DNA from: Escherichia coli
Lineage (GTDB): Bacteria > Pseudomonadota > Gammaproteobacteria > Enterobacterales > Enterobacteriaceae
Reading direction: 5' to 3' (one strand)
Length of the DNA: 64,000 nucleotides
NCBI RefSeq assembly: GCF_046105845.1
Contig: NZ_CP151004.1
The notes below the pieces were generated by a model that worked only from the letters and a program-made list of their open reading frames with translations, had not been told where the DNA came from and did no database searches. A program made the position numbers and the translations under genes. This document shows, piece after piece, positions 1,363 to 27,314 of the stretch; the first letter of the stretch is position 1; each line of letters opens with the position of its first letter.

Positions 1363-1392
1363 GGTTTCTCTTTCCTGTGGACCGATGCAAGA

Positions 1393-2134: not shown

Positions 2135-2242
2135 CATTTATGGCATGAATATAATTTTTAGATGAGTAACACAACTGAGGGCTAAAACTCGCCTTGGTTG
2201 TGATCATCATCACATAAATAGCCTTCATAAACCTTGCTCAAT

Positions 2243-2270
2243 ACCGCTCAACCGCAAAACTGACCGCTTA
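2243..2270 (+). promoter_or_regulatory. Putative BtsR (YehT) LytTR-type response-regulator binding site upstream of btsT: direct repeat ACCGCTCA-N12-ACCGCTTA
   Basis: Direct repeat of the ACC(G/A)CT(C/T)A motif seen in the sequence about 160 bp upstream of the btsT start. Assignment rests on recall of the published YehT motif. Confidence 0.4.
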
Positions 2271-2426
2271 CGTCCCTAAAATAACCACTCAGTTATTTAC
2301 CTTACTTTACGCGCGCGTAACTCTGGCAACATCACTGCAGGATAGCGGTCAATTTACCTCCTCAAACGCAACGCAAACCTAGAACGGCTTCGGCCAACTA
2401 TTAATCAATACATGCCAGGTTTTACT

Positions 2427-5797: not shown

Positions 5798-5805
5798 GGG
5801 GTTAT

Positions 5806-5835
5806 GGGCCGGATAAGGCGCAGCCGCATCTGGCC
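5806..5835. repeat. REP (repetitive extragenic palindromic) element
   Basis: GGGCCGGATAAGGCGCAGCCGCATCTGGCC, an imperfect palindrome of REP type between the convergent yjiA and mrr genes. Confidence 0.5.
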
Positions 5836-9900: not shown

Positions 9901-10457
9901 ATATTGACGATGAAGTGGTGAGCGTAAAATCGCTGTACGGTGATTACGACACGCCGCAGGATTTCCTCGAAGCCTTTGACTCGCTGGTGCAACGTTCCCC
10001 GAACGCGCAACCGGCATTGCAGGCGGTGATCAATCGCCCGCGCGATCTCACCCGTAAAGGGCTGGTTGAACTCCAGGAGTGGTTTGACCGCCAGCACTTT
10101 GAGGAATCTTCCCTGCGCAAAGCGTGGAAAGAGACGCGCAATGAAGATATCGCTGCCCGGCTGATTGGACATATTCGCCGCGCTGCGGTGGGCGATGCGC
10201 TGAAACCGTTTGAGGAACGTGTCGATCACGCGCTGACGCGCATTAAGGGCGAAAACGACTGGAGCAGCGAGCAATTAAGCTGGCTCGATCGTTTAGCGCA
10301 GGCGCTGAAAGAGAAAGTGGTGCTCGACGACGATGTCTTCAAAACCGGCAACTTCCACCGTCGCGGCGGGAAGGCGATGCTGCAAAGAACCTTTGACGAT
10401 AATCTCGACAACCTGCTTGATAAATTCAGCGATTATATCTGGGACGAGCTGGCCTGA
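6945..10457 (+). CDS. hsdR: Type I restriction enzyme R subunit HsdR (EcoKI family, type IA), 1170 aa
   Basis: N-terminus MMNKSNFEFLKGVNDFTYAIACAAENNYPDDP...; PD-(D/E)XK nuclease region followed by SF2 helicase motifs (LLAMATGTGKTRTAIA Walker A, VVDEAH DEAH box). Confidence 0.95.
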   Translation: MMNKSNFEFLKGVNDFTYAIACAAENNYPDDPNTTLIKMRMFGEATAKHLGMLLNIPPCENQHDLLRELGKIAFVDDNILSVFHKLRRIGNQAVHEYHNDLDDAQMCLRLGFRLAVWYYRLVTKDYDFPVPVFVLPERGENLYHQEVLTLKQQLEQQAREKAQTQAEVEAQQQKLVALNGYIAILEGKQQETEAQTQARLAALEAQLAEKNAELAKQTEQERKAYHKEITDQAIKRALNLSEEESRFLIDAQLRKAGWQADSKTLRFSKGARPEPGVNKAIAEWPTGKDETGNQGFADYVLFVGLKPIAVVEAKRKNIDVPGKLNESYRYSKCFDNGFLRETLLEHYSPDEVHEAVPEYETSWQDTSGQQRFKIPFCYSTNGREYRAAMKTKSGIWYRDVRDTRNMSKALPEWHRPEELLEMLGSEPQKQNQWFADNPGMSELGLRYYQEDAVRAVEKAIVKGQQEILLAMATGTGKTRTAIAMMFRLIQSQRFKRILFLVDRRSLGEQALGAFEDTRINGDTFNSIFDIKGLTDKFPEDSTKIHVATVQSLVKRTLQSDEPMPVARYDCIVVDEAHRGYILDKEQTEGELQFRSQLDYVSAYRRILDHFDAVKIALTATPALHTVQIFGEPVYRYTYRTAVIDGFLIDQDPPIQIITRNAQEGVYLAKGEQVERISPQGEVINDTLEDDQDFEVADFNRGLVIPAFNRAVCNELTNYLDPTGSQKTLVFCVTNAHADMVVEELRTAFKKKYPQLEHDAIIKITGDADKDARKVQTMITRFNKERLPNIVVTVDLLTTGVDIPSICNIVFLRKVRSRILYEQMKGRATRLCPDVNKTSFKIFDCVDIYSTLESVDTMRPVVVRPKVELQTLVNEITDSETYKITEADGRSFAEHSHEQLVAKLQRIIGLATFNRDRSETIDKQVRRLDELCQDVAGVSFNGFASRLREKGPHWSAEVFNKLPGFIARLEKLKTDINSLNDAPIFLDIDDEVVSVKSLYGDYDTPQDFLEAFDSLVQRSPNAQPALQAVINRPRDLTRKGLVELQEWFDRQHFEESSLRKAWKETRNEDIAARLIGHIRRAAVGDALKPFEERVDHALTRIKGENDWSSEQLSWLDRLAQALKEKVVLDDDVFKTGNFHRRGGKAMLQRTFDDNLDNLLDKFSDYIWDELA

Positions 10458-10658
10458 CACGTATACACTTCATCCTTCAGGCTACCTCTGCGTTGGCTGC
10501 GCTCGTTCACCCCGGTCACGTACTTCTGTACGCTCCCGGGGATTCACTCACTTGCCGCCTTGATGCAACCTGAATGATTTTGTGTATATTACCCTCGGCA
10601 ATTTCTTTTTCTGCGGCCCCAAACAATGCGGGCCGCTGCTTAATTTACGGAACTCACA

Positions 10659-12248
10659 ATGAACAATAACGATCTGGTCGCGAAGCTGTGGAAGCTGTGC
10701 GACAACCTGCGCGATGGCGGCGTTTCCTATCAAAACTACGTCAATGAACTCGCCTCGCTGCTGTTTTTGAAAATGTGTAAAGAGACCGGACAGGAAGCGG
10801 AGTACCTGCCGGTAGGCTACCGCTGGGATGATCTGAAATCCCGTATCGGTCAGGAGCAGTTGCAGTTCTACCGTAACCTGCTGGTACATCTGGGCGCCGA
10901 CAATCAAAAGCTGGTGCAGGCGGTGTTCCAGAACGTCAACACCACCATTACCCAGCCGAAACAGTTGACCGAGCTGGTCAGCAATATGGATTCACTGGAC
11001 TGGTACAACGGTGCGCACGGTAAGTCGCGCGATGACTTCGGCGATATGTACGAAGGGCTGCTGCAGAAGAACGCCAACGAAACCAAGTCTGGCGCGGGCC
11101 AGTACTTCACCCCGCGTCCGCTGATTAAAACCATTATTCATCTGCTGAAACCGCAGCCGCGTGAAGTGGTGCAGGATCCGGCAGCAGGTACGGCGGGCTT
11201 TTTGATTGAAGCCGACCGCTACGTTAAGTCGCAAACCAATGATCTGGACGACCTTGATGGCGACACGCAGGATTTCCAGATCCACCGCGCCTTTATCGGC
11301 CTCGAACTGGTGCCCGGCACCCGTCGTCTGGCGCTGATGAACTGCCTGCTACACGATATTGAAGGCAACCTCGACCACGGCGGCGCAATCCGTCTGGGCA
11401 ACACCCTGGGTAGCGACGGTGAAAATCTGCCGAAGGCGCATATTGTCGCCACTAACCCGCCGTTTGGCAGCGCCGCAGGCACCAACATTACCCGCACCTT
11501 TGTCCACCCGACCAGCAACAAACAGTTGTGCTTTATGCAGCATATTATCGAAACGCTGCATCCCGGCGGTCGTGCGGCGGTAGTGGTGCCAGATAACGTG
11601 CTGTTTGAAGGCGGCAAAGGCACCGACATCCGTCGTGACCTGATGGATAAGTGTCATCTGCATACCATCCTGCGTCTGCCGACCGGTATTTTTTACGCTC
11701 AGGGCGTGAAAACTAACGTGCTGTTCTTTACCAAAGGGACGGTGGCGAACCCGCATCAGGATAAGAACTGCACCGATGATGTGTGGGTGTACGACCTGCG
11801 TACCAATATGCCGAGCTTCGGCAAGCGCACGCCGTTTACCGACGAGCATTTGCAGCCGTTTGAGCGCGTGTATGGCGAAGATCCCCACGGTTTAAGCCCG
11901 CGCACTGAAGGTGAATGGAGTTTTAACGCCGAAGAGACGGAAGTTGCCGACAGCGAAGAGAACAAAAACACCGATCAGCATCTGGCTACCAGCCGCTGGC
12001 GCAAGTTCAGCCGCGAGTGGATCCGCACCGCGAAATCCGATTCGCTGGATATCTCCTGGCTGAAAGATAAAGACAGTATTGATGCCGACAACCTGCCGGA
12101 GCCGGATGTATTAGCGGCAGAAGCGATGGGTGAACTGGTGCAGGCGCTGGGCGAACTGGATGCGCTGATGCGTGAACTGGGGGCGAGCGATGAGGCCGAT
12201 TTGCAGCGTCAGTTGCTGGAAGAAGCATTTGGTGGGGTGAAGGAATGA
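10659..12248 (+). CDS. hsdM: Type I restriction-modification N6-adenine DNA methyltransferase subunit HsdM (529 aa)
   Basis: MNNNDLVAKLWKLCDNLRDGGVSYQNYVNELASLLFLKM...; contains the NPPF catalytic motif (ATNPPFGSA) and an AdoMet-binding region. Confidence 0.95.
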   Translation: MNNNDLVAKLWKLCDNLRDGGVSYQNYVNELASLLFLKMCKETGQEAEYLPVGYRWDDLKSRIGQEQLQFYRNLLVHLGADNQKLVQAVFQNVNTTITQPKQLTELVSNMDSLDWYNGAHGKSRDDFGDMYEGLLQKNANETKSGAGQYFTPRPLIKTIIHLLKPQPREVVQDPAAGTAGFLIEADRYVKSQTNDLDDLDGDTQDFQIHRAFIGLELVPGTRRLALMNCLLHDIEGNLDHGGAIRLGNTLGSDGENLPKAHIVATNPPFGSAAGTNITRTFVHPTSNKQLCFMQHIIETLHPGGRAAVVVPDNVLFEGGKGTDIRRDLMDKCHLHTILRLPTGIFYAQGVKTNVLFFTKGTVANPHQDKNCTDDVWVYDLRTNMPSFGKRTPFTDEHLQPFERVYGEDPHGLSPRTEGEWSFNAEETEVADSEENKNTDQHLATSRWRKFSREWIRTAKSDSLDISWLKDKDSIDADNLPEPDVLAAEAMGELVQALGELDALMRELGASDEADLQRQLLEEAFGGVKE

Positions 12249-13615
12249 GTGCGGAGAAATTGCCGGAGGGGTGGGTTGAGTGTGAATTATCCGAACTCGG
12301 TAACATTGTTACAGGGAAAACTCCCAGTACCAAGGAGCCTTCCAATTTTGGAGGCAGCATTCCTTTCATTAAACCAGGCGATCTTGATCTCGGTGGCTAT
12401 ATCATGAATACCGCCGATACTCTGACGGAGAAAGGGTTATCTCTTGTCCCCACTCTTCCTGCCAATTCAGTCGTTGTGACGTGTATTGGAAATTTAGGAA
12501 AAGTTGGAATTACCGCTAAAAAATCAGCATCTAATCAACAAATAAATGCATTGATCCCGTCAGAAAAGCTAAATGTAAAATTTGTTTATTACCAAATTTT
12601 AACATTAAAACCATGGTTAGAGTCTCAATCAGCAGCTACTACAATTGCGATTGTGAACAAGAGCAAATTTTCTCAGGCACCATTTAAATTCCCGTCGCTT
12701 GCCGAACAAAAAATCATCACTGAAAAACTCGATACGCTGCTGGCGCAGGTAGACAGCACCAAAGCACGTCTTGAGCAAATCCCACAAATCCTGAATCGTT
12801 TTCGTCAGGCTATTCTAGCTAATGCTGTGGAAGGAAAATTGACCGACGAATGGCGAGCCGGAAAATGTTATATTACAGAAATCAAAAAAATATCTGATAT
12901 TATTCAGAATGCTCAAGTCGGATTAGTTCGTTCAGCTTCAGATCAAAGCGAAATATGCACTCAAAAAATGAGAACGCCTTATATAAAAATGAATAACATT
13001 CACAATGTTCTCGGAACAAATTTAGAAAAACTCGCTTATGTCAACTGTGATAGCTATGAACTGGAAAAATATAGATTAAAAAATGGAGATTGGCTCTTTA
13101 ATACACGAAATAGTTATGAGTTAGTTGGTAAATCCTGTGTCTGGAATGGATGTAGCAATGCTGTATATAATAATAATATATTAAGAGTTAGACTAAAAGA
13201 AAACTACAATTCTGTTTTTTTAGATTATTGGTTTCACTCGTTCTATGGAGTGAGCATGCTTAATAGTATTAAATCCGCAACAACAAATGTTGCTGCGATA
13301 TATCAGAAAGAACTCTTAAGTAAAAGTGTTCCATTCCCCCCCCTTCCCGAACAAGCCGAGATTGTTCGCCGCGTCGAACAACTCTTCGCCTACGCCGACA
13401 CCATAGAAAAACAGGTCAACAACGCCTTAGCCCGCGTTAACAACCTGACGCAATCCATCCTGGCAAAAGCGTTCCGTGGTGAACTCACCGCCCAGTGGCG
13501 GGCCGAAAACCCGGATTTAATCAGCGGAGAAAACAGCGCCGCCGCGTTGCTGGAAAAAATCAAAGCTGAACGCGCAGCCAGCGGGGGTAAAAAAGCCTCG
13601 CGTAAAAAATCCTGA
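12245..13615 (+). CDS. hsdS: Type I restriction-modification specificity subunit HsdS (456 aa) with divergent AT-rich target-recognition domains
   Basis: ATGA start/stop overlap with hsdM. The conserved central (LAEQKIITEKLDTLLAQVDSTKARLEQIPQIL) and C-terminal (LPEQAEIVRRVEQLFAYADTIEKQVNNALARVNNLTQSILAKAFRGELTAQWR) regions frame two variable segments of visibly lower GC content. Confidence 0.9.
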   Translation: MSAEKLPEGWVECELSELGNIVTGKTPSTKEPSNFGGSIPFIKPGDLDLGGYIMNTADTLTEKGLSLVPTLPANSVVVTCIGNLGKVGITAKKSASNQQINALIPSEKLNVKFVYYQILTLKPWLESQSAATTIAIVNKSKFSQAPFKFPSLAEQKIITEKLDTLLAQVDSTKARLEQIPQILNRFRQAILANAVEGKLTDEWRAGKCYITEIKKISDIIQNAQVGLVRSASDQSEICTQKMRTPYIKMNNIHNVLGTNLEKLAYVNCDSYELEKYRLKNGDWLFNTRNSYELVGKSCVWNGCSNAVYNNNILRVRLKENYNSVFLDYWFHSFYGVSMLNSIKSATTNVAAIYQKELLSKSVPFPPLPEQAEIVRRVEQLFAYADTIEKQVNNALARVNNLTQSILAKAFRGELTAQWRAENPDLISGENSAAALLEKIKAERAASGGKKASRKKS

Positions 13616-13627
13616 TCATTATTTTCT

Positions 13628-13655
13628 GGCGCACCTTTCCGGTGCGCTTTTTATT
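13628..13655 (+). terminator. Rho-independent terminator after hsdS
   Basis: Hairpin GGCGCACC-TTTCC-GGTGCGC followed by TTTTTATT. Confidence 0.6.
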
Positions 13656-13749
13656 ATTTTACGCCAATCATAACTCACGCAAATATATTTAAATCATTCC
13701 AGAAATTGCCTATTTTATTCTATTTTTAGCTGGACTTTCCCTGTATTTA

Positions 13750-13765
13750 CTGATGATATATCCAG
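13750..13765 (+). promoter_or_regulatory. Putative LexA box (SOS operator) in the symE promoter
   Basis: CTGATGATATATCCAG against the consensus CTGT-N8-ACAG (2 mismatches), about 90 bp upstream of the symE start. symE is a known SOS-induced gene. Confidence 0.4.
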
Positions 13766-13771
13766 GTATTT

Positions 13772-13848
13772 AGCGCGGTGCGGATGTGCGCCAACACACC
13801 CGCACCGCTCATCACAATCACTATTCCAGGAGAATAGCAGTTATGACT
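13772..13848 (-). ncRNA. symR: Probable SymR antisense sRNA overlapping the symE 5' UTR, RBS and start codon (coordinates approximate)
   Basis: Placed from established knowledge of the symE/SymR arrangement (a ~77-nt cis-antisense RNA covering the symE translation initiation region). The inverted repeat GCGGTGCGG...CCGCACCGC at 13776..13809 lies within it. Exact ends are not determinable from sequence alone. Confidence 0.35.
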
Positions 13849-14184
13849 GACACGCATTTTATTGCACAACCGTTCGAAGCAGAAGTCTCCCCGGCAAATA
13901 ACCGTCAATTAACCGTGAGTTATGCGAGCCGCTACCCGGATTACAGCCGTATTCCCGCCATCACCCTGAAAGGTCAGTGGCTGGAAGCCGCCGGTTTTGC
14001 CACCGGCACGGCGGTAGATGTCAAAGTGATGGAAGGCTGTATTGTCCTCACCGCCCAACCCCCCGCCGCTGAAGAGAGCGAACTGATGCAGTCGCTGCGC
14101 CAGGTGTGCAAACTGTCGGCGCGTAAACAAAAGCAGGTGCAGGCGTTTATTGGAGTGATTGCCGGTAAACAGAAAGTCGCGTAA
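13843..14184 (+). CDS. symE: SOS-induced toxin-like protein SymE (113 aa; AbrB/SpoVT-fold endoribonuclease-like)
   Basis: [52 protein letters not shown]..., with AGGAG RBS upstream of the ATG at 13843. The ORF track start at 13786 is an upstream in-frame extension. Confidence 0.85.
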
Positions 14185-14345: not shown

Positions 14346-15725
14346 ATGGAATCAATTCAAGCCTGGATTGAAAAATTTATTGAGCAAGCACAGCAACAAA
14401 GTTCGCAATCCACTAAAGATTATCCAACGTCTTACCGTAACCTGCGAGTAAAAGTGAGTTTCGGTTATGGCAATTTTACATCTATTCCCTGGTTTGCATT
14501 TCTTGGAGAAGGTCAGGAAGTTTCTAACGGTATATATCCCGTTATTCTCTATTATAAAGATTTTGATGAGTTGGTTTTGGCTTATGGTATAAGTGACACG
14601 AATAAACCACATGCACAATGGCACTTTTCTTCTGACATACCTAAAACAATCGCAGAGTATTTCCAGGCAACTTCAGGTGTATATCCTAAAAAATACGGAC
14701 AGTCCTATTACGCCTGTTCCCAAAAAGTCTCACAGGGTCTTGATTATACCCGGCTTGCCTCCATGCTGGACAACATAATCAACGACTATAAATTAATATT
14801 TAATTCTGGCAAGAGTGTTATTCCACCTATGTCAAAAACTGAATCATACTGTCTGGAAGATGCGTTAAATGATTTGTTTATCCCTGAAACCACAATAGAG
14901 ACGATACTCAAACGATTAACCATCAAAAAAAATATTATCCTCCAGGGGCCGCCCGGCGTTGGAAAAACCTTTGTTGCACGCCGTCTGGCTTACTTGCTGA
15001 CAGGAGAAAAGGCTCCGCAACGCGTCAATATGGTTCAGTTCCATCAATCTTATAGCTATGAGGATTTTATACAGGGCTATCGTCCGAATGGTGTCGGCTT
15101 CCGACGTAAAGACGGTATATTTTACAATTTTTGTCAGCAAGCTAAAGAGCAGCCAGAGAAAAAGTATGTTTTTATTATAGATGAAATTAATCGTGCCAAT
15201 CTCAGTAAAGTATTTGGCGAAGTGATGATGTTAATGGAACATGATAAACGAGGTGAAAACTGGTCTGTTCCCTTAACCTACTCCGAAAACGATGAAGAAC
15301 GATTCTATGTCCCGGAGAATGTTTATATTATCGGTTTAATGAATACTGCCGATCGCTCTCTGGCCGTTGTTGATTATGCCCTGCGCAGACGATTTTCTTT
15401 CATAGATATTGAGCCAGGTTTTGATACACCACAGTTCCGGAATTTTTTACTGAATAAAAAAGCAGAACCTTCATTTGTTGAGTCTTTATGCCAAAAAATG
15501 AACGAGTTAAACCAGGAAATCAGCAAAGAGGCCACTATCCTTGGGAAAGGATTCCGCATTGGGCATAGTTACTTCTGCTGTGGGTTGGAAGATGGCACCT
15601 CTCCGGATACGCAATGGCTTAATGAAATTGTGATGACGGATATCGCCCCTTTACTCGAAGAATATTTCTTTGATGACCCCTATAAACAACAGAAATGGAC
15701 CAACAAATTATTAGGGGACTCATAG
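14346..15725 (+). CDS. mcrB: 5-methylcytosine-specific restriction enzyme McrB (GTPase / AAA+ DNA-binding subunit), 459 aa
   Basis: MESIQAWIEKFIEQAQQQSSQSTKDYPTSYRNLRVK..., with GPPGVGKT Walker A and a DEIN Walker B-like motif. AT-rich composition. Confidence 0.93.
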   Translation: MESIQAWIEKFIEQAQQQSSQSTKDYPTSYRNLRVKVSFGYGNFTSIPWFAFLGEGQEVSNGIYPVILYYKDFDELVLAYGISDTNKPHAQWHFSSDIPKTIAEYFQATSGVYPKKYGQSYYACSQKVSQGLDYTRLASMLDNIINDYKLIFNSGKSVIPPMSKTESYCLEDALNDLFIPETTIETILKRLTIKKNIILQGPPGVGKTFVARRLAYLLTGEKAPQRVNMVQFHQSYSYEDFIQGYRPNGVGFRRKDGIFYNFCQQAKEQPEKKYVFIIDEINRANLSKVFGEVMMLMEHDKRGENWSVPLTYSENDEERFYVPENVYIIGLMNTADRSLAVVDYALRRRFSFIDIEPGFDTPQFRNFLLNKKAEPSFVESLCQKMNELNQEISKEATILGKGFRIGHSYFCCGLEDGTSPDTQWLNEIVMTDIAPLLEEYFFDDPYKQQKWTNKLLGDS

Positions 15726-16771
15726 TGGAACAGCCCGTGATACCTGTCCGTAATATCTATTACATGCTTACCTATGCATGGGGTTATTTACAGGACATTA
15801 AGCAGGCCGACCTTGAAGCCATACCCGGTAACAATCTTCTTGATATCCTGGGGTATGTATTAAATAAAGGGGTTTTACAGCTTTCACGCCGAGGGCTTGA
15901 GCTTGATTACAATCCTAATACCGAGATCATTCCTGGCATCAAAGGGCGAATAGAGTTTGCTAAAACAATACGCGGCTTCCATCTTAATCATGGGAAAACC
16001 GTCAGTACTTTTGATATGCTTAATGAAGACACGCTGGCTAACCGAATTATAAAAAGCACATTAGCCATATTAATTAAGCATGAAAAGTTAAATTCAACTA
16101 TCAGAGATGAAGCTCGTTCACTTTATAGAAAATTACCGGGCATTAGCACTCTTCATTTAACTCCGCAGCATTTCAGCTATCTGAACGGCGGAAAAAATAC
16201 GCGTTATTATAAATTCGTTATCAGTGTCTGCAAATTCATCGTCAATAATTCTATTCCAGGTCAAAACAAAGGACACTACCGTTTCTATGATTTTGAAAGA
16301 AACGAAAAAGAGATGTCATTACTTTATCAAAATTTTCTTTTTGAATTTTGCCGTCGTGAATTACCATCTGTAAATACAACTCGCCCACATTTAAAATGGG
16401 ATGCATCAAGCATATCGGATCAATCACTTAGCTTGTTACCTCGAATGGAAACTGACATCACCATTAACTCATCAGGGAAAATACTTATCGTTGATGCCAA
16501 ATACTATAAAAGCATTTTTTCACGACGAATGGGTACAGAAAAGTTTCATTCTCAAAATCTATATCAACTGATGAGTTACTTATGGTCGTTAAAGCCTGAA
16601 AATGGCGAAAAAACAGGGGGGTTATTAATATACCCACACGTAGACACCTCAGTGAAACATCGTTATAAAATTAATGGCTTCGATATTGGCTTGTGTACCG
16701 TCAATTTAGGTCAGGAATGGCCGTGTATACATCAAGAATTACTCGACATTTTCGGTGAATATCTCAAATAA
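15725..16771 (+). CDS. mcrC: 5-methylcytosine-specific restriction enzyme McrC (nuclease subunit), 348 aa, GTG start overlapping the mcrB stop by 1 nt
   Basis: Reading from the GTG at 15725 gives (M)EQPVIPVRNIYYMLTYAWGYLQDIKQ...; a PD-(D/E)XK-type region (ILIVDAKYYK) lies near the C-terminus. The ORF track start (15695) is an upstream in-frame extension. Confidence 0.9.
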   Translation: MEQPVIPVRNIYYMLTYAWGYLQDIKQADLEAIPGNNLLDILGYVLNKGVLQLSRRGLELDYNPNTEIIPGIKGRIEFAKTIRGFHLNHGKTVSTFDMLNEDTLANRIIKSTLAILIKHEKLNSTIRDEARSLYRKLPGISTLHLTPQHFSYLNGGKNTRYYKFVISVCKFIVNNSIPGQNKGHYRFYDFERNEKEMSLLYQNFLFEFCRRELPSVNTTRPHLKWDASSISDQSLSLLPRMETDITINSSGKILIVDAKYYKSIFSRRMGTEKFHSQNLYQLMSYLWSLKPENGEKTGGLLIYPHVDTSVKHRYKINGFDIGLCTVNLGQEWPCIHQELLDIFGEYLK

Positions 16772-16793
16772 GCGGTAAGTTTTATAGAAAATA

Positions 16794-16820
16794 CCGCTCC
16801 CGACACCACATCGGGAGCGG
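16794..16820. terminator. Stem-loop between the convergent mcrC and large helicase genes (likely bidirectional terminator)
   Basis: CCGCTCCCGA-CACCACA-TCGGGAGCGG hairpin located between the mcrC stop (16771) and the helicase stop (16828). Confidence 0.5.
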
Positions 16821-16827
16821 CTCATCA

Positions 16828-19800
16828 TCAGGAGGCGATCACCTCCACCAGCACATCCGTTGCCCAACTCTCTTCGCTGTTGGCGACATTCCCTTCCTTG
16901 CAGGCCTGAGCCATTTTGACTAACTGGAAAGAAACGTCATCGCGGAAATCAAAGTAATGCCATTGCGATGCAAAGTTGATGCGCCAGTAGCCCATCCCCT
17001 GATCGAAGCGGATCTTCAATACCTGACCATCATCAAAAGTCACCGTCAGTTTACGATGGTGAGGGATATCGCGCGGCGAGTCGAACACCGTCAGTTCTAC
17101 CGGCCTGCCCAGCGCAGCAGCAAACCACTGATCAGCGAAATCCTGAAAATCCGCTATGCTCATCCAGTCATGGAAAGGCCGGTTACCGGGGCGATCTTTA
17201 TCTTTAAATAGCGTATCCAGCGTCACTTCAGCGCCATCGGTCAGCTTTGTTTTTAGCGGTCTCAAAATTGATCCCAACAACGCCAGCGCAACCGGGTTTT
17301 GCAGATAGCGATCGGTATAGTGAACGCCGGTAATTCGCGTGTTATTCATCAGTGACTGCGCTTCTTCATGGTCGTTAAACAGCACGTCCCAGAAGCGTTG
17401 CCCAAACTGCGACAGTGGTCCATTCAACTGTTTGTGGATCTGAATGTCTTTGACCCGCTCGACAGCGTTGGCGGCTTTAGCCGGCAGAATAAATTCGTTC
17501 AGCTCTACCGTTTTATAGCCGAGACTACGTACCACCAGTTCGTCATTCAGGTGCCACTCCGGCCCCGGAATCGTTGCCTGCTGGCTACGAGAGGCCAGCG
17601 TCATCACGCGATCGGCAAAGGTGACCTGAGCAACGATCGGTAATTTCAAATCCTGTTCAACATGGCATAGCCGCACACCCAGCGCAGTAAATTGCGATAG
17701 TTCGTGCAACAGGTCCGGGTCATCCACTCCCGCAGGAATAACAAGATCGACCTCGACGTTGTCTTTTAGCCGATAGTTCTGAACCGCCGCGCGGAACTGA
17801 CGTGCGTATAAATCCCACTCATTGGGCGCGCCGGTCATCCACAGGGTGAGCTTTTCAGCGCCTTCGTTAATCGCCCGGCGAATCGTATCGCCAATGGCGC
17901 CAGGGCAGTAGCGGGCATCCGGCAGCGAGAATGTCTCTTCATCCGGTAAACCGATGTAATACGTGAAGTCATCGCCAAGCCAGGCCAGCGCCGCTTTGCG
18001 ATCCAGCAAATCGTGATCGTGGCGAGTCTGGGAATCAAGCAGGCATTCACTACATGCAGTCTCACAATGGCGGCAGCCTAACTGTTTCACCATTCCCTGC
18101 AATATAGCTTCAATGTGTACCGGTGCGCTGGAGGCAAAACCTGCACCACCGCTGATCACATCATAAAGCTGTACGGCTAATACCGATTGCCCATCCTCCA
18201 GTCTGACCGGACGTACAGAATAGCCGAGTTCTGCGGCGGAGATACCCAGAACGCCCGCCAGCGCCTGACGCAGAGCAACCGCCAGAGTCATGGCAACAAT
18301 CCGCCCCTCCTCTGTGTTATCTGGCAGATACTCGCCGTTTTGCGGTTTGCGCAGAACCATTTCAAAGACATCGGTGCGCGCCAGTGCGCCCAGGGTGACG
18401 TTCTTCATGAGTGCCGTCGAACCGGGGCAAATCAGACGATGATTCTGGCTATCGCGGTCCGCTTTACCCGGACGCGGTGGATAGTGAGCTTCCATGCTTT
18501 TCGGCGCATCATTTTCATTCAGCATCGACTCAGCACGGCCACAGCTCAGACACAATGCATAACCGTGTCCACCTTCCCCCAAACTTTGCTGGAAAACATG
18601 CCCATCAGCCCCAGAAGCCATATAACCCATTAGCGGGTTAGGCAACGGTACGGGCTCTGCTTTAACAAAGACCCACGCGGGGACAACCGGGACGAATTTC
18701 ATGGTTTCAATATTGTTCGTTACCGGAGCGTGTGCATCGGTGACAAACCCGGCAGGCTGCAGCACCTGACGGCGATTATCCATGATTATTTTTTCGCCGC
18801 AGGCGCTATTGGAGCAAAAGAGCATCCCGGAACTGCTCATCCCCTCTTCATAGCCAATGGTCCCGCATTTGTGACAGCGCCAGGCGCAATCCAGACGCTG
18901 GGCTTCATTGGTATCAGCATTAATGTTGTGCCAGTGCAGTGAGACACCGGCAGAGCGGAAGACACGGCCATCAAGAATGATCTCTGCTCCCGGTGCATAT
19001 TCACGAATGGCAACACCGAGGTTACGGGAAGGTAATCCTTTATAACGGGAGACGTTATCTTCACGGTCCTTTTTATCACGACTTTTTTGCGATTTTTCGC
19101 GGATATAATCTTCCATTGTGAAGTTATCAAACGTCACTACATCTGTCGGGAAACCGTATCCCGGCAAGAAGGTTCTGGCAGCTAGATCGCGCAGCAGATA
19201 CTCGCCACAGTGCCGTTTCTTCTCCAGCTCTATGCGCTTACGATAAGGCGTTTGCGGCTGCGACTCACGCTCCTGTGTCACGAGATCGCGATAAACGGAG
19301 AGCCACCGCTGCTGCAGGAAGGTGATCGCGTTGATTGTTTTATCCCGCAGATATTCGGCTCTTGCACCATGCAACGCCGTACCTTTCACCAGCCGTTCCA
19401 GCGCCGTGTCGATATCAAGAACAGGGCGTTCCAGCCAGACTTTGAAGCGTTCGCATTTTGACTGCCCGTCATCTTCACCGAAAAACCAGAGGCTATCGAG
19501 GCTGGTTTTCTCTTTATCGGTTTCGCCAATAACGTTACATAAAAAGTCGGACAGTAATAATGCATTGACGTGACGTTGCACCAGTCGGGCGGAGTTCATC
19601 GCGACCATGGGTGCCGGGATCATGGTTTCAAATGGCCAGAGCGGGTTGGCAAAAACCTGCTGGTCGTGTGGGTTACCTTTACATAGGGTGTAAGAGATCG
19701 CACGTGATTCTTTACTACGCCCGGCTCGCCCGGCGCGCTGTAAATAGTTGGCCGGATGTGGCGGTACGTTGTTCATTACCACCGCAGTAATGCCCCCGAT

Positions 19801-22800
19801 ATCAACCCCCATTTCCATGGTGGTGGAACAGTTGAGAACATTTAGTTGCCCATTCTTGAACATCTTTTCATAGCTTTGCAGACGTTCTGACGACTGCTGG
19901 GCAGAGTGCTCGGCAGTGCGATAGTAGAAACCGCCTTCCACGACACGATCGTTGATGTCTGTCCAGACGTTTTCCGACCGCAATTGTGCGATCAGCGGAT
20001 CATTGCTGACCCAGTCGCGTGCTTTTGCCAGACCCTCTGCGTAGTCTTCCTGTGAACGATCCAGCTTCCAGATTTCCGGCATGGTGACTTTCTGCGCGAC
20101 AAAAGTGTCATATTGCGCCTGGGTAAGATGCTCGAACGAAATATGGGTAGGCAGATAAGGGGTTAAGCCTTTAAAAGCCGTATCCAGGATTTTATTGGTT
20201 ACCGGGCAAATCCAGGCATCCGTGATTAATGAAAAAGTCATATGCTCTTTCGGTAAATAAAAACGGTTGCCATCGGGTTTCAGTACTGCAAGCGGTCCGG
20301 TAAGTTGGGCCCATGCTTCTTTCAGCCATGTATTGATAATATCAATAGTCGCCGTATTGACGGTTTTGAATCCAGCCCCCAGCATCAGTAACTTCGCTAA
20401 ACGATGGGATACGTTGCCATTACGAATTTGAGGCCAGCGTCTGTTCTGATTATCTTCAGGATCTTTTGATTCCGGGTTACGGACGAATTTTGATGAAAAA
20501 CGGCTACCGATCCAGTTTTTCAGCTCATCATCCAGCTGTGTGAAGTTGCTCTCACGAACGTAATGATCCAGCGTAACTTTGAGAAAATCGCGCCAGTCAT
20601 CCAGCGTTAATCCTTTTTCCTGCCAGTGCAGAGGGATCTTATGTATTTTCTCCAGCCCCAGGTAACCAACCTGAACCAGCCCTTGTGTTTCCAGGCTGTT
20701 AGTCCGTTTAGGGCGACGCATGAATTCCCGGAATAACAACATTTCCGAAAGCTTTAGAGGCCCGCCGTTTTCATTAAACACTTCAGGCTTAAGATAATGG
20801 TTATATTGCAGAACCGGGCCACGGATATCGGCTCTCTCTTTAAGCTCGTTAACCATTTCTGTCCAGGTTCGGGATACCAGAGTAATTGCAGCTTTTCCAC
20901 CGATTGCAGACTGGTAAGCCTGTTCAAGCTGCTCGGCCTGCGCTTCTGATAATTTCGCTTGATCCGGCAATCCCCAGCTTCGATATTCTTCTGCCTGCTC
21001 ACGGGCTTGCTTTACCCTGGTCGCTAATTTTTCCAGATCGGCATTAGCGTTCGGCGCCGTGGGCGTTTGCGTTCGTTGATGCCAGCTCAGAATTTCGACT
21101 ACGCTTCCGCGTAAGCGACTACGTTCTGCTTCTTGCTGCATACGCACCGCCATCCGGGCTGTCCCTTGTCGACTATCCGTAAAGGTAATGAGTCGACGTC
21201 CTCGCCCTGGCAACGAATCTGGTCCGACGCCCTCTTTGCCTTCATCACTGGCAAAGTCCTGACAATACTCAAGAACGGTAGGCACGATGTTAGTAACGTA
21301 AAATGGCCCACCTAATAATGCACGCCGAAAGGGTTGTTTTCCGCTCATGCCTCGGTAGCCACAGCCGCTGGCGCTACAAACCTGTTCAATATCATTAATA
21401 ATCAGCGGAATGCTGTCATTATTAATAACGCCAATACGGCGCGTCTGACGGTCGAGGCGTTGTAGGGTATAGCCTGTCTCGCTGGTCTCTCCTGCGGCAA
21501 TAATCAACGGAGGCTGGAAACTGTTCTCTTTTTCGACTTTTTCCTCTGTAGTGTCATGTTCAACAGGTACTTCATCCTGCAAGGAGAACTCATCGCCACC
21601 TTTATTTTCCCATTGGACAAGTTTGCCCTTTTTGTCCTGCGCCAGAAGATGAGGCTCATTACAATCATTACAGAACGCCACTTCGTATACAGGGCTTCCA
21701 CAGTCACAATTTTGTCGCTGGTTCACATACACATAGCCAAAGGGCCAGCCTTTTTCGAGCGGTGTACCGTGCTTTAATCTGCAATCTTTATCAACACAAG
21801 CCCATATTCCCTGGGTATTACGCTGGAAGATATGCGCCCTGACTTTAAGAAATGCGGGATCCTTTGCATTAGGTTGAGTCCCTGAACAGACATCGATCCA
21901 ACGCAGTACTTCCTGCTGGCTGTAATGCTGTTTTGTCAGCACGTTTAACCGCTCTGTTATCTCATCCAGCTTCATCGGATTGGGCTGTTTGACCAACATC
22001 TCACGTATGTAACGCGCTTCGGGGGAATGCGTAAGCGCATAAAAGCGATCAGGACTTATACCTTTAATTTTATTATCATTTTTATCTCTTAGATCCAGAT
22101 CGGGTATTTGCTCTATTTCGTCTAACGGAAGAGAAACGTTTTTGGATGGTTCCAGTTCAGGAATCACCCGACTTCCGTCCAGAACATCGATGCGCTCCTT
22201 CGGGATACCGGATAATTCAGAGAGAAATTTTTTCAGCTGCTTTTCGACGTCGCTGCCGGCAATGGTCGCAGAGGTCGCTACAAAGCGCACATCATCTGGC
22301 GTCACGCCAAACGCTGTCATCACACGACGCAGCTGGAGCGCCAGTTCAGCGGCCTGCGACCCGACATAGGTATGCGCTTCATCCAGTACAATCCAGCGTA
22401 GTGATTTTTGTGCTTTGGATTGCTGGATAATCGGGGCGTCGACCTGGCGAACCATCATATATTCCAGCATCGTGCCGTTGGTCACCAGAATCGGGGCAGG
22501 TTCTTCACGCATTTTTTCGCGCGAGAGCACCTCATTCGGCCTTTTTGCCTGTTCGCTTTTTACCGAAGCGTGTAGGTTTTCGGTGTTACCGTTGTAAAGG
22601 CAGTAGCGGATCCCGGTACCAAAACCACGCGTCCAGGCATCCAGACGCTCGCGCTGTGAATTAATCAGGGCGTTCAATGGATAGAGAAAAAGGGCTCGGA
22701 CACCGACCAACGGATTGTTGCCATTTTCATGCAGTTCCCGGTAAAGATCTTCCAGCACCGGTACCATAAAACATTCCGTTTTACCTGAACCCGTACCACT

Positions 22801-23172
22801 GGTTACCACCACTGAATGTTTCTTTTCCAGCAAAGCTTTCCAACTGGCTAACTGGTGTGTAAAAGGCTTCCAGTCAGCACCAAATCGGTACCGGCCATTA
22901 CTCTGATCATCCAGTGAATCAACCACTGCTTTGCTCAACAATGCGTTGCCTTCCGTCAGACTGCGCATCGTGTGGTTTGACTCCTTCCAGCCAAACATTT
23001 GCTGGAATACCGGAGAAGCAAGGAATGAGCCCGGTTTCCCACAATCAGCCCCCATTTGTTGCGCGAGATGTTCACGCAGCTGCGGGTTGGTTACGCCCAT
23101 GATACTGAGCGTTGCTTCAGTTGAACGAGACAACGATTGTTCAATAAGTGACGAAAAATAGCGTGTAGTCAT
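16828..23172 (-). CDS. druE: Giant (2114 aa) SF2 DEAH-box helicase with MrfA-type Zn-binding (DUF1998/MZB-like) Cys clusters; candidate Druantia type III DruE-like defense helicase
   Basis: Walker [10 protein letters not shown] (~22780..22800), DEAH box VLDEAHTY (~22367..22384), SAT motif, motif [10 protein letters not shown] (~19718..19741), Cys4 clusters CHKCG...CSNSACG and [11 protein letters not shown] (~18040..18880). Forms an operon with the 1112-aa gene upstream (12-bp gap). The DruE name is inference from size, architecture and locus, not a verified hit. Confidence 0.75.
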
Positions 23173-23184
23173 CCTTATTCCTTT

Positions 23185-26100
23185 TTATTTTTTAGCAACA
23201 TAACGCAACAGGCTGCACTGAAAGATGGTCTTAAACCAGCGGGAATCGAAGTCCCTGACTTGCCTCAGGAAAAATACGGCACCGGGTTTACGGTCAAATA
23301 CAGCTTCAAAAGAAGTATTTCCGCTTGCCACAGCTGCAGCGAAGACGGGTAACCAGGCCACGGAATAGCGGTGATTTGCGTCAGGATTAATACCAATCAC
23401 TGGCTTTTTTTGTGACATCATCCATTTATACAGACGCTTGCAGCCATATTCAGGCCAGCGAGCTTCACTGTGCTCACGTAAAAGCTCCTGATACCACCCG
23501 TGGACACAAGATTCAGGAATAGACGGAGGGAGATATCCGTTACTTAACCATTTCTCAATTTCATCGGCATATGTCGGGAACACGAGCCCCAGCCGTTGAA
23601 ACATATTAGTAACCAGTAATTTCTGGGTTTCCTCCGGTGCACCTTTTTGGCTCAGGAACAATTTGAAACGCTCAGATGCAGCTTTGATCTCAAAGATGGG
23701 GAAAAACTCCCATAGAATAGGGAACTCATTCTCAATACGACTCAGGTACTCTGCTGACATTTCAAATTTGAAGAGCGACATTGCCAATGCCTGCGGATGC
23801 TGCACCAGTGCACGCCATACTTCAAAGGTTGCCAGTGGTAAATACCCGAATTGATCGTACAGGCTACGCATAAATTGCCAGCCGGAATGGGCAGGATCGT
23901 TAGCCATCTGTCCGAGAACCAGTGTGATGGTATTAACTTCTGCCTGTGGATTAAAAAGCTGGGTCGCTTTCTGCAATGAGCGGATGTTGCTTTCTTCTAC
24001 CGGTAACGAAGATTCGCCACGAATGAAGCAGGGACGAAAAGCCATCTCTTCACCCGGTTTAGGGACAACCAACCACGGTCCATTTTTGTTAACGATTGAG
24101 CTCAACTCATATTCACCGACAGGCACTCCCTCGCTCATTCTAGATGCTAAGGGAATGGATTTCCTCTCGGGTTCACTTAACAGCATGATAACGGGGGAAG
24201 GAATCTGCCCAGCACGATGGTTCACTGACTGGCTGAGTAATAGTTCTTTTTCATAATCATAGCGCAGGCTGTATTTATAGCGACGAATTTGCCAGGCCAT
24301 GACCACACCTGCCCCCGTAATACGCATCTCAACAACCTGATCAATACCTGCCTCAAGTGAAATCAGGTTCTCAATATGTTCGCGAAGACTATAGAGATTC
24401 AATTCAACAGGACGATCGCTCAACGCCGTATAACACCATTCATGCCATGCCTGTAATCCACTAACGGAGCGCAAATACAACTGCAATGTATATTTTGTCG
24501 GCTCACCATTTCTGGAGAACAGAAACGCTCTGGAACCCAGCAGATCATGCAGCGTAATGTTTTTATCCAGAGGACGTCCGTTTACATCAAGAGCGAGACA
24601 GCCTTTAGCGGGAAAAGGTAACTCAATGTCGATGGGGTCAGCCGCCAAATTAGGCAGAACTTGTAATGTAATAAATGCCGGAGGTACCCCTTCCGCTTTA
24701 AGTTGTATCTCTGTTCGCCCCTCAGTACGCTTACGTGTAGCCTCCAATGTTTTATCTTTAAGTTTTGCTACACAAGGATGCTGTGTGGTGATTAAGATAG
24801 TGCCTTCATTTGCGTGCATTCCACCTTTTATCTCAATACTGAAATCAGCAGGCAAGATACCGATTTTGCGACGCAAGAGCGTTTCATTGTTACTATTACG
24901 GATAGAAAGATATTGAGCCCCCAGCATCTCTTGTATATGACATTGCTCAATTGAAATTCCGCTCAGGTAACGCGTTACATCAATGCTTTGAATATCCGGT
25001 AGTGTAGAAATGACTTTTGGTACACCAATAAATGTTTCATCTGGATGACAAACCCAGCTTGCACGCTTTCCATTTAGAGCAAACCTTCCGATGCTGATTT
25101 GTTCTCTTCCGGTGCGAATCCGATAAGTTTCATTTGCTGTAACTGTAACGTCCTGACATCCCTTCACAGGTAGTGCTTTTAGTCCTAATACGTTTACTGC
25201 GCTCGATTGGCCATCAAAACCAGCAACATTGCTATTATCCCGAGGGAGTACAATCAGAACATCGCTGCTTCGCACACTGCAAGAAGCCTGTCCCTGTAAC
25301 AGCCATTGATCTGCATCAACGATGAAGGTTAACGGCACCTCACCAATGGCAATTTCACTGTCATCAAGTTTAATGCTCCCAACAATCATCCCTCCAGCAC
25401 GAGCCACTAATGACAAACCTGCCGATGGATTTTGCCTGACAAATCTCACTTCGCTTTTACGTAATCGAACTGTTGCCTGTCTGTTTTCCAGGGAAGCATA
25501 GGCTGGCCCAAGGCCAGAGACTTCCTCACCATCTTCACAAATGGCAAGTTCAAAGCGCGTAGTTGACGGCTCGCTTGTTACAGGAAAGGAAACTTCGTCC
25601 GGAAGAGATACTATCACCCTAAGCTCATCTGGATGCTTTTCTGACCAATAGAATTGGCAACGCGTACTCTTATTTTTTTGTAGTCGAGGCTTAGCCTCTA
25701 CAGAGGCTGCGCATAGCAGTCCATTCAAAAAATGCGTTCCTGTTTCATCATCTAACGGTATTGGAAACTCGCTTCGCCAGGTAGGGTGAACCTTCTCAAG
25801 CTGTTGTACTGGTTCTTTGTGATTTATTAGGTTGTGAGTAAGTACTAAGGAATTGAGGTTATCAGCCATATGACTGATAAGTTCTACAGAGGTATCTTCG
25901 CTAAAAACAGTTGGCAGCGCTGATTTTTCTATGACAGCTCTTGCCAGCGAAAGGGCAGAAAAACCTGACTGCTTTGCTTGCTCATATTGTCCAAGGATCC
26001 TGGAGAAAACAGCCAGAAAGCGACTGTCTGATTCTTTGAGTAGCCGGAAAGGTAAACCACCTTCACTGAATAATGTTCCGAGAAAATTGCGTCGTTCAGA

Positions 26101-26523
26101 TTCATAAAATCGAATTGGGCGCAGCCAGTAATCTTCCATCCCTTTCGGTACGATAGTACCAAGCTCTGTGGCGGTGAATGAAATCCCTATTTTTTTATAT
26201 ATAGGGTCCCACGTCCATCCGCATTGCCGTTCATAATCCCTGCGGTACCACTCAGAGCAAAAAAGAACAAAACAGGCAGCAAAGTCCCTATTACATATAT
26301 TAGATTGTGATTGATCGACCGCACGGAGTAGCTGCGTTAATTGGGTATATTCATCATTGGTTGCATGATATTCATAAAGAGGACGGCCATCCGGTTGTCT
26401 CAACCCTCTAAGATTCACAAAGTTACTTAGCCAGGAAGTACATTTTACCCATGAAATGTATTCTGATTGACCCAAAGCAAGCTCCTTAGAGATAAAAGAT
26501 ACAAAAACAAAACCCCACAACAC
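23185..26523 (-). CDS. druH: Large (1096-1112 aa) protein of unknown function encoded immediately upstream of the giant helicase; candidate Druantia type III DruH-like partner
   Basis: Uninterrupted 1112-codon ORF with no recognisable catalytic motifs, co-directional and near-contiguous with the helicase gene. Start is uncertain: GTG at 26523, or TTG at 26475 preceded by a strong AAGGAG SD. An AT-rich promoter region lies upstream (26524..26970). Confidence 0.65.
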   Translation of the reverse strand: MLWGFVFVSFISKELALGQSEYISWVKCTSWLSNFVNLRGLRQPDGRPLYEYHATNDEYTQLTQLLRAVDQSQSNICNRDFAACFVLFCSEWYRRDYERQCGWTWDPIYKKIGISFTATELGTIVPKGMEDYWLRPIRFYESERRNFLGTLFSEGGLPFRLLKESDSRFLAVFSRILGQYEQAKQSGFSALSLARAVIEKSALPTVFSEDTSVELISHMADNLNSLVLTHNLINHKEPVQQLEKVHPTWRSEFPIPLDDETGTHFLNGLLCAASVEAKPRLQKNKSTRCQFYWSEKHPDELRVIVSLPDEVSFPVTSEPSTTRFELAICEDGEEVSGLGPAYASLENRQATVRLRKSEVRFVRQNPSAGLSLVARAGGMIVGSIKLDDSEIAIGEVPLTFIVDADQWLLQGQASCSVRSSDVLIVLPRDNSNVAGFDGQSSAVNVLGLKALPVKGCQDVTVTANETYRIRTGREQISIGRFALNGKRASWVCHPDETFIGVPKVISTLPDIQSIDVTRYLSGISIEQCHIQEMLGAQYLSIRNSNNETLLRRKIGILPADFSIEIKGGMHANEGTILITTQHPCVAKLKDKTLEATRKRTEGRTEIQLKAEGVPPAFITLQVLPNLAADPIDIELPFPAKGCLALDVNGRPLDKNITLHDLLGSRAFLFSRNGEPTKYTLQLYLRSVSGLQAWHEWCYTALSDRPVELNLYSLREHIENLISLEAGIDQVVEMRITGAGVVMAWQIRRYKYSLRYDYEKELLLSQSVNHRAGQIPSPVIMLLSEPERKSIPLASRMSEGVPVGEYELSSIVNKNGPWLVVPKPGEEMAFRPCFIRGESSLPVEESNIRSLQKATQLFNPQAEVNTITLVLGQMANDPAHSGWQFMRSLYDQFGYLPLATFEVWRALVQHPQALAMSLFKFEMSAEYLSRIENEFPILWEFFPIFEIKAASERFKLFLSQKGAPEETQKLLVTNMFQRLGLVFPTYADEIEKWLSNGYLPPSIPESCVHGWYQELLREHSEARWPEYGCKRLYKWMMSQKKPVIGINPDANHRYSVAWLPVFAAAVASGNTSFEAVFDRKPGAVFFLRQVRDFDSRWFKTIFQCSLLRYVAKK

Positions 26524-26973
26524 TTCTAATTTGAAAGAAAACTTTTCAAAATATCGTATAATTAATCAGGCGGCAACAACTAATTTTTCAGGTCGGTACT
26601 ATAAATTAATTTTAGATAAAAATGATATCAACCATCTATTAATCACAACTCATTTATCACCTGGTTTTATAATTTCAAATGAAAATAAATCTCAAACAAT
26701 CAAAAAGTATGCAGTAGCTAACATTTAACTTTCCAGGATATAAAACAATTAGAGAAACTGCACAATAGCGAATAATGAAAGTTGTAAAGTCAGTCAAAAA
26801 ACACAAGCAATCAGTGTGCGTTTTTTGACCGTTATCGACATGAGTTTAAAGAGTTTAGTGAAGAAGATATTCCTGTACACTCCATACCTATTGATGAATT
26901 GTCTCGGGAAAATTTTTATAACTTAATTTAAAAACATAAAAACGTTTTATTATATATAAATCTATACCCCCCC

Positions 26974-27138
26974 TCACTCCACATCCTCCCTGCGTAACCC
27001 AATATCCCTCAACCGCTCATCACTCATCTGCTGTAACACCCGCCGGGCCTGCATTTGCCGCCGCCAACGCCTCACTGCCTGCCAGAGTTGCACAAGTCCA
27101 ATAAACGGTGCTTTAGCTTTGTTTTCGTGAAATTCCAT
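26974..27138 (-). CDS. yjiS: DUF1127-family small protein YjiS (54 aa)
   Basis: Translated by hand: MEFHENKAKAPFIGLVQLWQAVRRWRRQMQARRVLQQMSDERLRDIGLRREDVE, with a GAGGAGG RBS upstream. Below the 60-aa cut-off of the ORF track. Confidence 0.75.
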   Translation of the reverse strand: MEFHENKAKAPFIGLVQLWQAVRRWRRQMQARRVLQQMSDERLRDIGLRREDVE

Positions 27139-27314
27139 CTGCTGCCTCCTCATCTTTCAGAGGCTTCATCATCCGTCTTCTGGCAGTTCACAATACAGAT
27201 GCAAATATTAGTTTTATTTAACATACAGACAGGTTAAAACAGCATCTGCATCCGGTTTTTTAGCCTCATCTGTACCGGTTTTTCTCTCTGTATGGTCCAA
27301 ATAAGGAACACAGC

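Follow-up and report, generated by a model that had tools for sequence, protein, structure and literature searches.

An intact Druantia type III-A operon, druH-druE, in the immigration-control region of Escherichia coli

We analysed a 64,000-nucleotide stretch of Escherichia coli DNA (contig NZ_CP151004.1 of RefSeq assembly GCF_046105845.1; hereafter the window) and found that positions 16828 to 26523 hold an intact Druantia type III operon, druH-druE, the full-length counterpart of what K-12 carries as the pseudogenes yjiT and yjiV. The locus is identified as an intact, selectively maintained type III-A Druantia operon in the E. coli immigration-control region. In kind it is ordinary, Druantia III being among the commonest E. 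coli defence systems, and both the system and the sequence family are already known and recognised by standard tools, RefSeq, NCBIfam and recent Pfam. Its value is that of a natural, intact second E. coli Druantia III lineage, diverged enough (33% identity for DruE, ~20% for DruH) to test which features of the models published in 2026 are general.

Identity and architecture of the druH-druE operon

Two intact open reading frames (ORFs) run in the same direction on the minus strand, one of 2114 amino acids (aa) from an ATG (16828..23172) and one of 1112 aa from a GTG (23185..26523), with no internal stops and bracketed by mcrC (15695..16771, plus strand) and yjiS (26974..27138, minus strand). 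Neighbouring genes are named here after the RefSeq annotation of a genome with 99.4% identity over the 10.8-kb locus, and all features of druE and druH given below lie on the minus strand. ORF sizes, strand, positions, the 12-bp gap and the two flanking genes were exactly as stated in a first-pass annotation made from the letters alone. ORFs of such length are far from expected by chance at ~50% GC, and both also returned profile matches with E = 0. The PADLOC profile DruE3 (PDLC00037) matched the downstream protein with 2697 bits, protein residues 1-2110 aligning to profile positions 1-2053 of 2055, and DruH3 (PDLC00049) matched the upstream protein over its full length with 1829 bits. The upstream protein also scored 1261 bits against the NCBIfam family NF038336 (YjiT_fam), which has a cut-off of 150. 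This profile search had been proposed beforehand as the check on the annotation's reading, a Druantia type III druH-druE operon beside hsd and mcr, and it upheld that reading. The type III layout is present, with the two genes adjacent, co-directional and druH upstream of druE, and with no type I or II accessory genes (druA-D, druM/F/G). Subtype III-A has been described as having PLD-like domains at the DruE C-terminus (PMC12458937; 10.64898/2026.05.13.724758). Of the features that define Druantia type III and its subtype III-A, all those open to testing were found at the locus.

A different YprA-family system (DISARM, ARMADA, Dpd, BRIGADE or TALON), or a housekeeping repair helicase of the MrfA/Lhr type, would have the SF2 core and MZB/DUF1998 domain in common with the downstream protein, and weak matches to PADLOC DpdJ, DrmA and BrxH and to NCBIfam DECH- and Lhr-type helicases point the same way. 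Those matches, however, cover generic RecA regions only (E 1e-9 to 1e-35), and we consider this explanation extremely improbable. The PADLOC DpdJ, DrmA, BrxH and Cas3 profiles aligned to generic RecA segments with E values of 1e-7 to 1e-28; DISARM DrmA profiles got no further than about 1e-9 over ~60-95 residues of the generic helicase C-terminal domain (E = 9e-10 over 58 residues of Helicase_C); and the named NCBIfam helicase families all stayed far under their cut-offs (TIGR03817, 121 bits versus 874; NF007284 (Lhr), 48 versus 1496). DruE3, by comparison, covers 2110 residues at E = 0, the partner gene belongs to the DruH/YjiT family, and no DrmB, DrmC, DrmM or Arm genes are adjacent. Assignments to DISARM, Dpd, a BREX helicase, Cas3 or Lhr/MrfA were therefore rejected; a match to DrmA or to an Lhr/MrfA helicase had been named in the first-pass annotation as an outcome that would refute its reading.

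druE, the intact form of yjiV, encodes a YprA/MrfA-like SF2 helicase with a C-terminal PLD-like module. Its RecA1/DEAD domain (aa 106-310, 22243..22857; Pfam PF00270, E = 7.7e-23) contains motif I, GSGKT (K131), and motif II, DEAH (D264, E265, H267); the RecA2/Helicase_C core (aa 1085-1153, 19714..19920; PF00271, E = 1e-11) contains motif VI, RAGRAGR (R1149, R1152), and a ~770-aa insertion parts the two. Further downstream, Pfam places an MZB/DUF1998 zinc-binding domain at aa ~1631-1711 (18040..18282) with the Cys4 cluster C1700, C1703, C1707 and C1710, so that the split SF2 helicase with an MZB/DUF1998 domain that had been read from the translation was found as described. A predicted PLD-like fold occupies the C-terminus (aa ~1725-2114, 16831..18000). 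A Pfam scan of this C-terminus with an older library version returned nothing beyond MZB; the newer family YjiV_N is among the precomputed hits on close DruE relatives. The claim that the operon comes with neither a methyltransferase nor a PLD partner thus stands in its first part, the two-gene operon having no methyltransferase, and falls in its second, since DruE itself carries the predicted PLD-like module.

For druH (yjiT), translation most probably begins at the TTG at 26475, which gives a protein of 1096 aa (23185..26475), rather than at the GTG at 26523 that opens the maximal ORF, because AAGGAG lies 6 nucleotides (nt) upstream of the TTG, RefSeq starts yjiT there and homologues align only from residue 18. 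DruH residues are numbered here from the TTG. An AlphaFold2 (AF2) model with a predicted local distance difference test (pLDDT) score of 90.5 divides the protein into an N-terminal helical domain (aa 1-267, 25675..26475), a central beta-rich array of immunoglobulin-like (Ig-like) domains seen in the predicted secondary structure (aa ~272-820, 24016..25662) and a C-terminal helical domain (aa ~834-1096, 23188..23976; pLDDT above 90). Foldseek searches of the model against the PDB returned tandem Ig-like arrays as top matches (leptin receptor, Robo2, contactin), the same kind of match that was reported for solved DruH structures (10.64898/2026.05.13.724313), and the order of helical domain, Ig-like array and helical domain is that reported for solved DruH. 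The statement that the upstream protein has no recognisable motifs was right for the older Pfam-A library, in which a scan of DruH gave zero matches. It does not survive the YjiT_fam match, nor the newer Pfam families YjiT_N and YjiT_2nd that close DruH relatives carry as precomputed hits; the empty result is explained by the library version.

Residue conservation across Druantia III lineages

Window DruE aligned over its full length with the DruE of PDB entry 9tu7 (1026 bits) and was colinear end to end with OI-172-type DruE. The helicase residues of the characterised protein are kept (K121 as K131, R165 as R176, D251/E252 as D264/E265, R1135/R1138 as R1149/R1152 and R1372 as R1383, the last at the position of an ssDNA-contact residue, that is, one touching single-stranded DNA), as are the MZB cysteines (Cys1681, 1683, 1687 and 1690, here C1700, C1703, C1707 and C1710). 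Mutating those helicase and MZB positions abolished defence in the characterised system (10.64898/2026.05.13.724758; PMC13192584). Within the PLD-like module, W1786, D1787, Y1952, D1954, R1955, Y1956, H2038, R2040, D2057, G2059, Y2062 and W2063 are invariant in the family. That the D-R-Y and H-x-R motifs among them persist between lineages with just 33% identity argues that the module is under selection for a function. By motif pattern, the same residues fit D1917/R1918/Y1919 and H1999/R2001, the validated nuclease site of P. aeruginosa DruE (10.64898/2026.05.13.724313). To the four-helix insert that the characterised DruE uses for dimerisation (the 'protruding' or stalk insert, K683-N753), a stretch of similar length at ~704-765 of window DruE could be aligned, with low identity and several gaps. 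PDB entry 9wae and six related entries (labelled 'Helicase', 1970 aa) matched DruE residues 1108-1413 only (E = 9e-30); they presumably represent either a DruE from a different Druantia type or some related helicase of the YprA family.

DruH has diverged further. BLASTP against OI-172-type DruH gave 24% identity over the first ~580 residues and was barely detectable beyond; the DruH of PDB entry 9tud aligned over the N-terminal domain. A profile-profile comparison (hhalign) with the characterised DruH clade reached a probability of 100% and E = 5e-123 over ~1050 columns at 18% identity, which shows homology between the two DruH lineages along their whole length. The N-terminal surface of the characterised protein (residues 63-137) is essential, its mutation abolishing defence (PMC13192584). 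In this patch, 12 of the 14 loss-of-function positions are identical in window DruH (F69, E75, R78, R79, W89, Y116, W117, L132, T134, L135, G139 and G140, corresponding to F69, E75, R78, R79, W88, Y114, W115, L129, T131, L132, G136 and G137), and most are near-invariant across 105 family members, with conservation of at least 90% at E75, R78, R79, W89, W117, L132, G139 and G140. In the structure of the P. aeruginosa complex, the C-terminal helical domain of DruH touches the stalk of DruE (10.64898/2026.05.13.724313), and by analogy the corresponding domain of window DruH would dock on DruE.

Lineage, selection and genomic context

Among 5426 complete E. coli genomes, the locus is essentially intact in about 224-235, and the DruE protein cluster at 90% identity has 3969 member sequences. 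The nearest DruE relatives are found in E. coli (98%), Pantoea/Enterobacter (89%), and Pluralibacter and Leclercia (~80%), followed at ~60% by Pseudomonas, Methylobacter, Azotobacter and Halomonas. The window druHE pair belongs to a lineage different from that of the CHARACTERISED systems and of every characterised system compared. Wu et al. (PMC13192584) distinguish 15 Druantia III clades and place their own system in 'cluster 11'.

Against one other E. coli allele, the ratio of non-synonymous to synonymous substitution rates (dN/dS) was 0.115 for druE and 0.098 for druH, and against two other intact E. coli alleles it was 0.06-0.12 for both genes. Intact druH and druE are thus under purifying selection, and the intact form is therefore no relic. 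Between two alleles, the N-terminal DruH domain (aa 1-267) had a dN/dS of 0.35 from six non-synonymous and five synonymous changes, counts too small to interpret; in the same pair the Ig-like region had 0.07 and the C-terminal domain 0.09. For the other DruH lineage, Wu et al. (PMC13192584) reported positive selection in the Ig-like region instead.

The comparison with strains holding pseudogene remnants, which the first-pass annotation had suggested, bore out its expectation. Between mcrC and yjiS, K-12 has the same site and flanks and only fragments of the operon: three segments are retained (window 16500-17615, 19797-21949 and 24967-27299), 96-98% identical in DNA to the window. Two deletions account for the rest, one of 2181 bp inside druE (17616-19796) and one of 3017 bp that removed the 5' end of druE and the 3' end of druH (21950-24966), leaving a 503-codon druH fragment and two druE fragments. 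These fragments are the pseudogenes yjiT and yjiV, and the Pfam family name YjiV_N is consistent with the latter name. At the deletion junctions, neighbouring BLAST segments share 3 bp and 5 bp, which suggests that the remnant may have arisen by microhomology-mediated deletion. BL21-type genomes retain even less (~14% of the 5' part of druE), and the yjiS-yjiA region of O157:H7 contains no druHE. The intact locus explains what yjiT and yjiV formerly were in K-12, the usual host for defence-system assays, which holds only the three fragments.

These remnants at the same site in K-12- and BL21-type genomes could be taken to mean that the window copy, too, is a decaying or silent relic without present function. 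The 498-bp yjiS-druH intergenic region (26476..26973), presumed to hold promoter and regulatory sequences, would fit this explanation in that it is AT-rich (29% GC; window, 49%) and a simple consensus scan of it found no sigma-70 promoter upstream of druH. We nevertheless rate a relic as very unlikely: both ORFs run their full length with every catalytic motif intact, the dN/dS values are low, and the 90%-identity cluster of DruE is large. The same AT-rich region is the kind of DNA that H-NS silences; H-NS and StpA have been named as host factors assisting clearance in one Druantia paper (10.64898/2026.05.13.724758).

druH and druE are separated by a 12-nt spacer (23173..23184, AAAGGAATAAGG) in which a Shine-Dalgarno-like AAGGA can be read. 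Where the window has a gap, related loci show druH and druE overlapping by 1-8 nt, which fits their co-translation as one operon. Seven nucleotides past the druE stop begins an intrinsic-terminator-like hairpin (16793..16821, minus strand; 13 pairs, 8 of them G-C) followed by ATTTTCT.

In order, the surrounding genes are mrr, hsdR, hsdM, hsdS, symE with the SymR RNA, mcrB and mcrC; druE and druH follow, encoded by the other strand, and after them come yjiS and yjiR. The two-gene cassette is kept in the P. aeruginosa and Pantoea/Enterobacter relatives, with no third gene common to the loci. In the Pantoea/Enterobacter relative (DruE 89%), druHE adjoins symE, hsdS, hsdM and hsdR (15364-22485 of the compared locus) as in the window, where the corresponding type I restriction-modification (R-M) and symE segment is 6945-14184, and mcrBC is absent. 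In the P. aeruginosa relative (DruE 59%), the neighbours of druHE are hsdM and hsdS (636-3424 of the compared locus), DarT and an OLD-family ATPase-TOPRIM gene. The association of druHE with type I R-M is thus a recurrent one, found in different genera.

Several neighbouring differences were recorded alongside. The symE toxin ORF and its antisense SymR RNA lie between hsdS and mcrB (13772-14184; Rfam RF01809, 93.5 bits). The centre of hsdS (12809-13348) could not be aligned to a 99%-similar genome; the two thus differ in their target-recognition domain and, with it, in type I specificity. mcrB (14569-15168 region) is an intact 465-aa ORF in the window and is frameshifted and deleted in the 99%-similar genome. 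The tsr-btsT interval (1421-2243) contains ~820 bp with a 208-aa ORF at 1508-2134, compared with only ~135 bp in the closest genome; O157:H7 has a hypothetical gene at the equivalent place (5282-5824 of the compared locus).

Mechanism and comparison with known systems

The first-pass annotation called the mechanism of Druantia unresolved, a statement that is out of date: cryo-electron microscopy structures and mechanistic models appeared in 2026 (10.64898/2026.05.12.722862; 10.64898/2026.05.13.724758; 10.64898/2026.05.13.724313; PMC13192584; PMC13316683; PDB 9tu7, 9tud). From the systems characterised there we infer a mechanism for the window lineage by homology, and consider it quite likely that the locus is a functional Druantia III-A system acting directly on phage DNA intermediates through its helicase activity. 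DruE, as a YprA/MrfA-type SF2 helicase, would load on exposed ssDNA or ssDNA-duplex junctions of phage replication and recombination intermediates, translocate 3' to 5' with ATP and unwind the duplex, for which the MZB zinc domain would be needed. The C-terminal PLD-like module would then probably nick or degrade the DNA; that such cleavage is part of the mechanism is the view we lean towards. DruH would be essential, its N-terminal helical domain either processing 3' ends (the exonuclease model) or sensing infection and its C-terminal helical domain docking on DruE. The expected outcome is direct clearance of phage DNA with the host not killed, self-DNA being spared because the circular, protein-covered chromosome would offer few free ssDNA ends. 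In the other lineages studied in 2026, both proteins were required and defence was direct, not abortive.

The published models differ in how this is achieved. According to Loeff et al. (10.64898/2026.05.13.724313), DruH acts first, as a 3'-5' exonuclease trimming forked DNA; it then brings in DruE, whose autoinhibited dimer is split, and the PLD nuclease is essential. In the account of Wu et al. (PMC13192584), DruH senses late structural proteins of the phage and has a dimer-dependent nuclease activity, and DruE is a combined helicase and nuclease that forms oligomers on long ssDNA. Hu et al. found DruH to be an ssDNA binder competitively inhibited by ATP and saw no nuclease, and Himpich et al. 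(10.64898/2026.05.13.724758) found the PLD domains dispensable and detected no nuclease activity.

Several points weigh against our reading of the locus as functional in this way. We found no published experiment on the window's Druantia III lineage; the characterised systems are of other lineages (OI-172/SPIDER-type E. coli, P. aeruginosa BL12 and M. smegmatis), and identity to the characterised E. coli proteins is low (DruE, 33%; DruH, 18-24%). At the nine positions that form the nucleobase/ATP pocket of DruH (Y670, N672, H689, Y733, D735, R1031, H1062, R1064, K1067), window DruH has no identical residue, a result that holds in a multiple sequence alignment and in an independent profile-profile alignment. 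In the pairwise DruE alignment, neither the PLD-pocket residues R1258 (K here), N1987, Q1990 and Y1995 nor the oligomerisation residues R2075, H1415, K1546, H1572 and H1574 are conserved. The published mechanisms themselves conflict, the PLD module being dispensable in one study (10.64898/2026.05.13.724758) and essential in two (10.64898/2026.05.13.724313; PMC13192584), and the role of DruH is disputed between ATP-inhibited ssDNA binder, 3'-5' exonuclease and phage-protein sensor with dimer-dependent nuclease. To these comes the negative promoter scan given above.

On one published account (10.64898/2026.05.12.722862, partly 10.64898/2026.05.13.724758), Druantia III immobilises phage DNA by helicase action only: DruE unwinds, DruH clamps ssDNA when ATP runs low, the DNA is cut by neither of them, and completion is left to other systems. 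The fully conserved helicase core and MZB domain of window DruE agree with this account, as does the study in which the PLD domains were dispensable and nuclease activity went undetected, and the adjacent nucleases McrBC, type I HsdR and Mrr could act downstream. We regard it as unlikely for the window lineage, in which the pocket that would clamp ssDNA and respond to ATP is conserved at 0 of 9 positions, whereas D-R-Y and H-x-R are invariant across lineages and nuclease activity was essential in the two other studies. The pocket residues were conserved only in about 8-12 of 24 OI-172-side sequences, the closer half, and the DruH ssDNA/ATP pocket is a feature of one clade that does not define Druantia III. 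Conservation in the window lineage favours models built on the N-terminal domain of DruH and on the PLD-like D-R-Y/H-x-R site, and speaks against an OI-172-style ATP switch.

Going beyond direct action on phage DNA, the YjiT/YjiV lineage may differ in its regulation from the characterised OI-172 lineage: neighbouring restriction enzymes might generate the DNA ends or ssDNA that license it, in place of a drop in ATP or of Zorya. This suggestion arises because DruH is without the ATP/ssDNA pocket, DruE is without the mapped oligomerisation and PLD-pocket residues, and the partner of the lineage in E. coli, P. aeruginosa and the Pantoea/Enterobacter relative is a type I R-M system (with symE as well in E. 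coli and the Pantoea/Enterobacter relative) rather than Zorya II or ARMADA II; we hold it to be unlikely. If true, it would make the neighbourhood a coupled restriction-Druantia unit.

As candidates for general features of Druantia III, the comparison offers the DruH N-terminal patch, the helicase and MZB domains and the PLD D-R-Y/H-x-R motifs; the DruH ATP/ssDNA pocket and the DruE oligomerisation residues are candidates for features of one clade. What is apparently unpublished is modest: that the intact yjiT-yjiV locus represents a separate, uncharacterised E. coli Druantia III lineage, that residues central to one published model are clade-specific and that type I R-M and symE accompany the lineage in more than a single genus.

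Among named systems, the OI-172/SPIDER-island Druantia III-A of E. coli (ECOR19, ATCC 8739, EDL933, NCTC 12923; 'cluster 11' of PMC13192584; 9tu7, 9tud) has the same gene order, druH then druE, and nearly identical protein sizes (DruH 1119 and DruE 2104 aa, compared with 1096 and 2114 aa in the window). The two have in common the helicase motifs, R1372, the MZB Cys4 cluster, the D-R-Y/H-x-R motifs, and the three-part architecture and N-terminal patch of DruH. They differ in location, the OI-172 type sitting on a tRNA-linked island between Zorya II and ARMADA II and the window druHE in the yjiS-mcrC immigration-control region; in gene spacing, the genes overlapping in the former and lying 12 nt apart in the latter; and in the DruH ssDNA/ATP pocket and the DruE PLD-pocket and oligomerisation residues, which the OI-172 type has and the window does not conserve. 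For the type III Druantia that Wang et al. (10.1101/2022.06.16.496414) cloned from E. coli, the main text leaves the lineage unstated; their K124A matches neither Walker lysine (K131 in the window, K121 in the OI-172 type), and we draw no conclusion from it.

With the type III Druantia of P. aeruginosa BL12 (Loeff, Chanez and Jinek, 10.64898/2026.05.13.724313), residue correspondences run via motif patterns only. The 59%-identical P. aeruginosa relative was considered as the system of Loeff et al. and rejected, since E266, D1740, H1830, D1917-Y1919, R1951, H1999, R2001 and S2022 misfit. Their residue numbering fits none of the 120 nearest relatives of window DruE, and the BL12 system is therefore of a different lineage.

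DISARM distributes its functions over separate proteins (DrmA, DrmB, the PLD protein DrmC and the methyltransferase DrmMI/DrmMII), whereas in the window helicase, MZB and PLD-like parts are fused in one 2114-aa protein and the operon is without a methyltransferase, the nearby hsdM being part of a type I R-M unit of its own, encoded by the opposite strand. Repair helicases of the MrfA/YprA or Lhr type, finally, are ~750-1500 aa long and have MrfB or a ligase as partner; the partner in the window is a YjiT-family protein and not an MrfB-type exonuclease.

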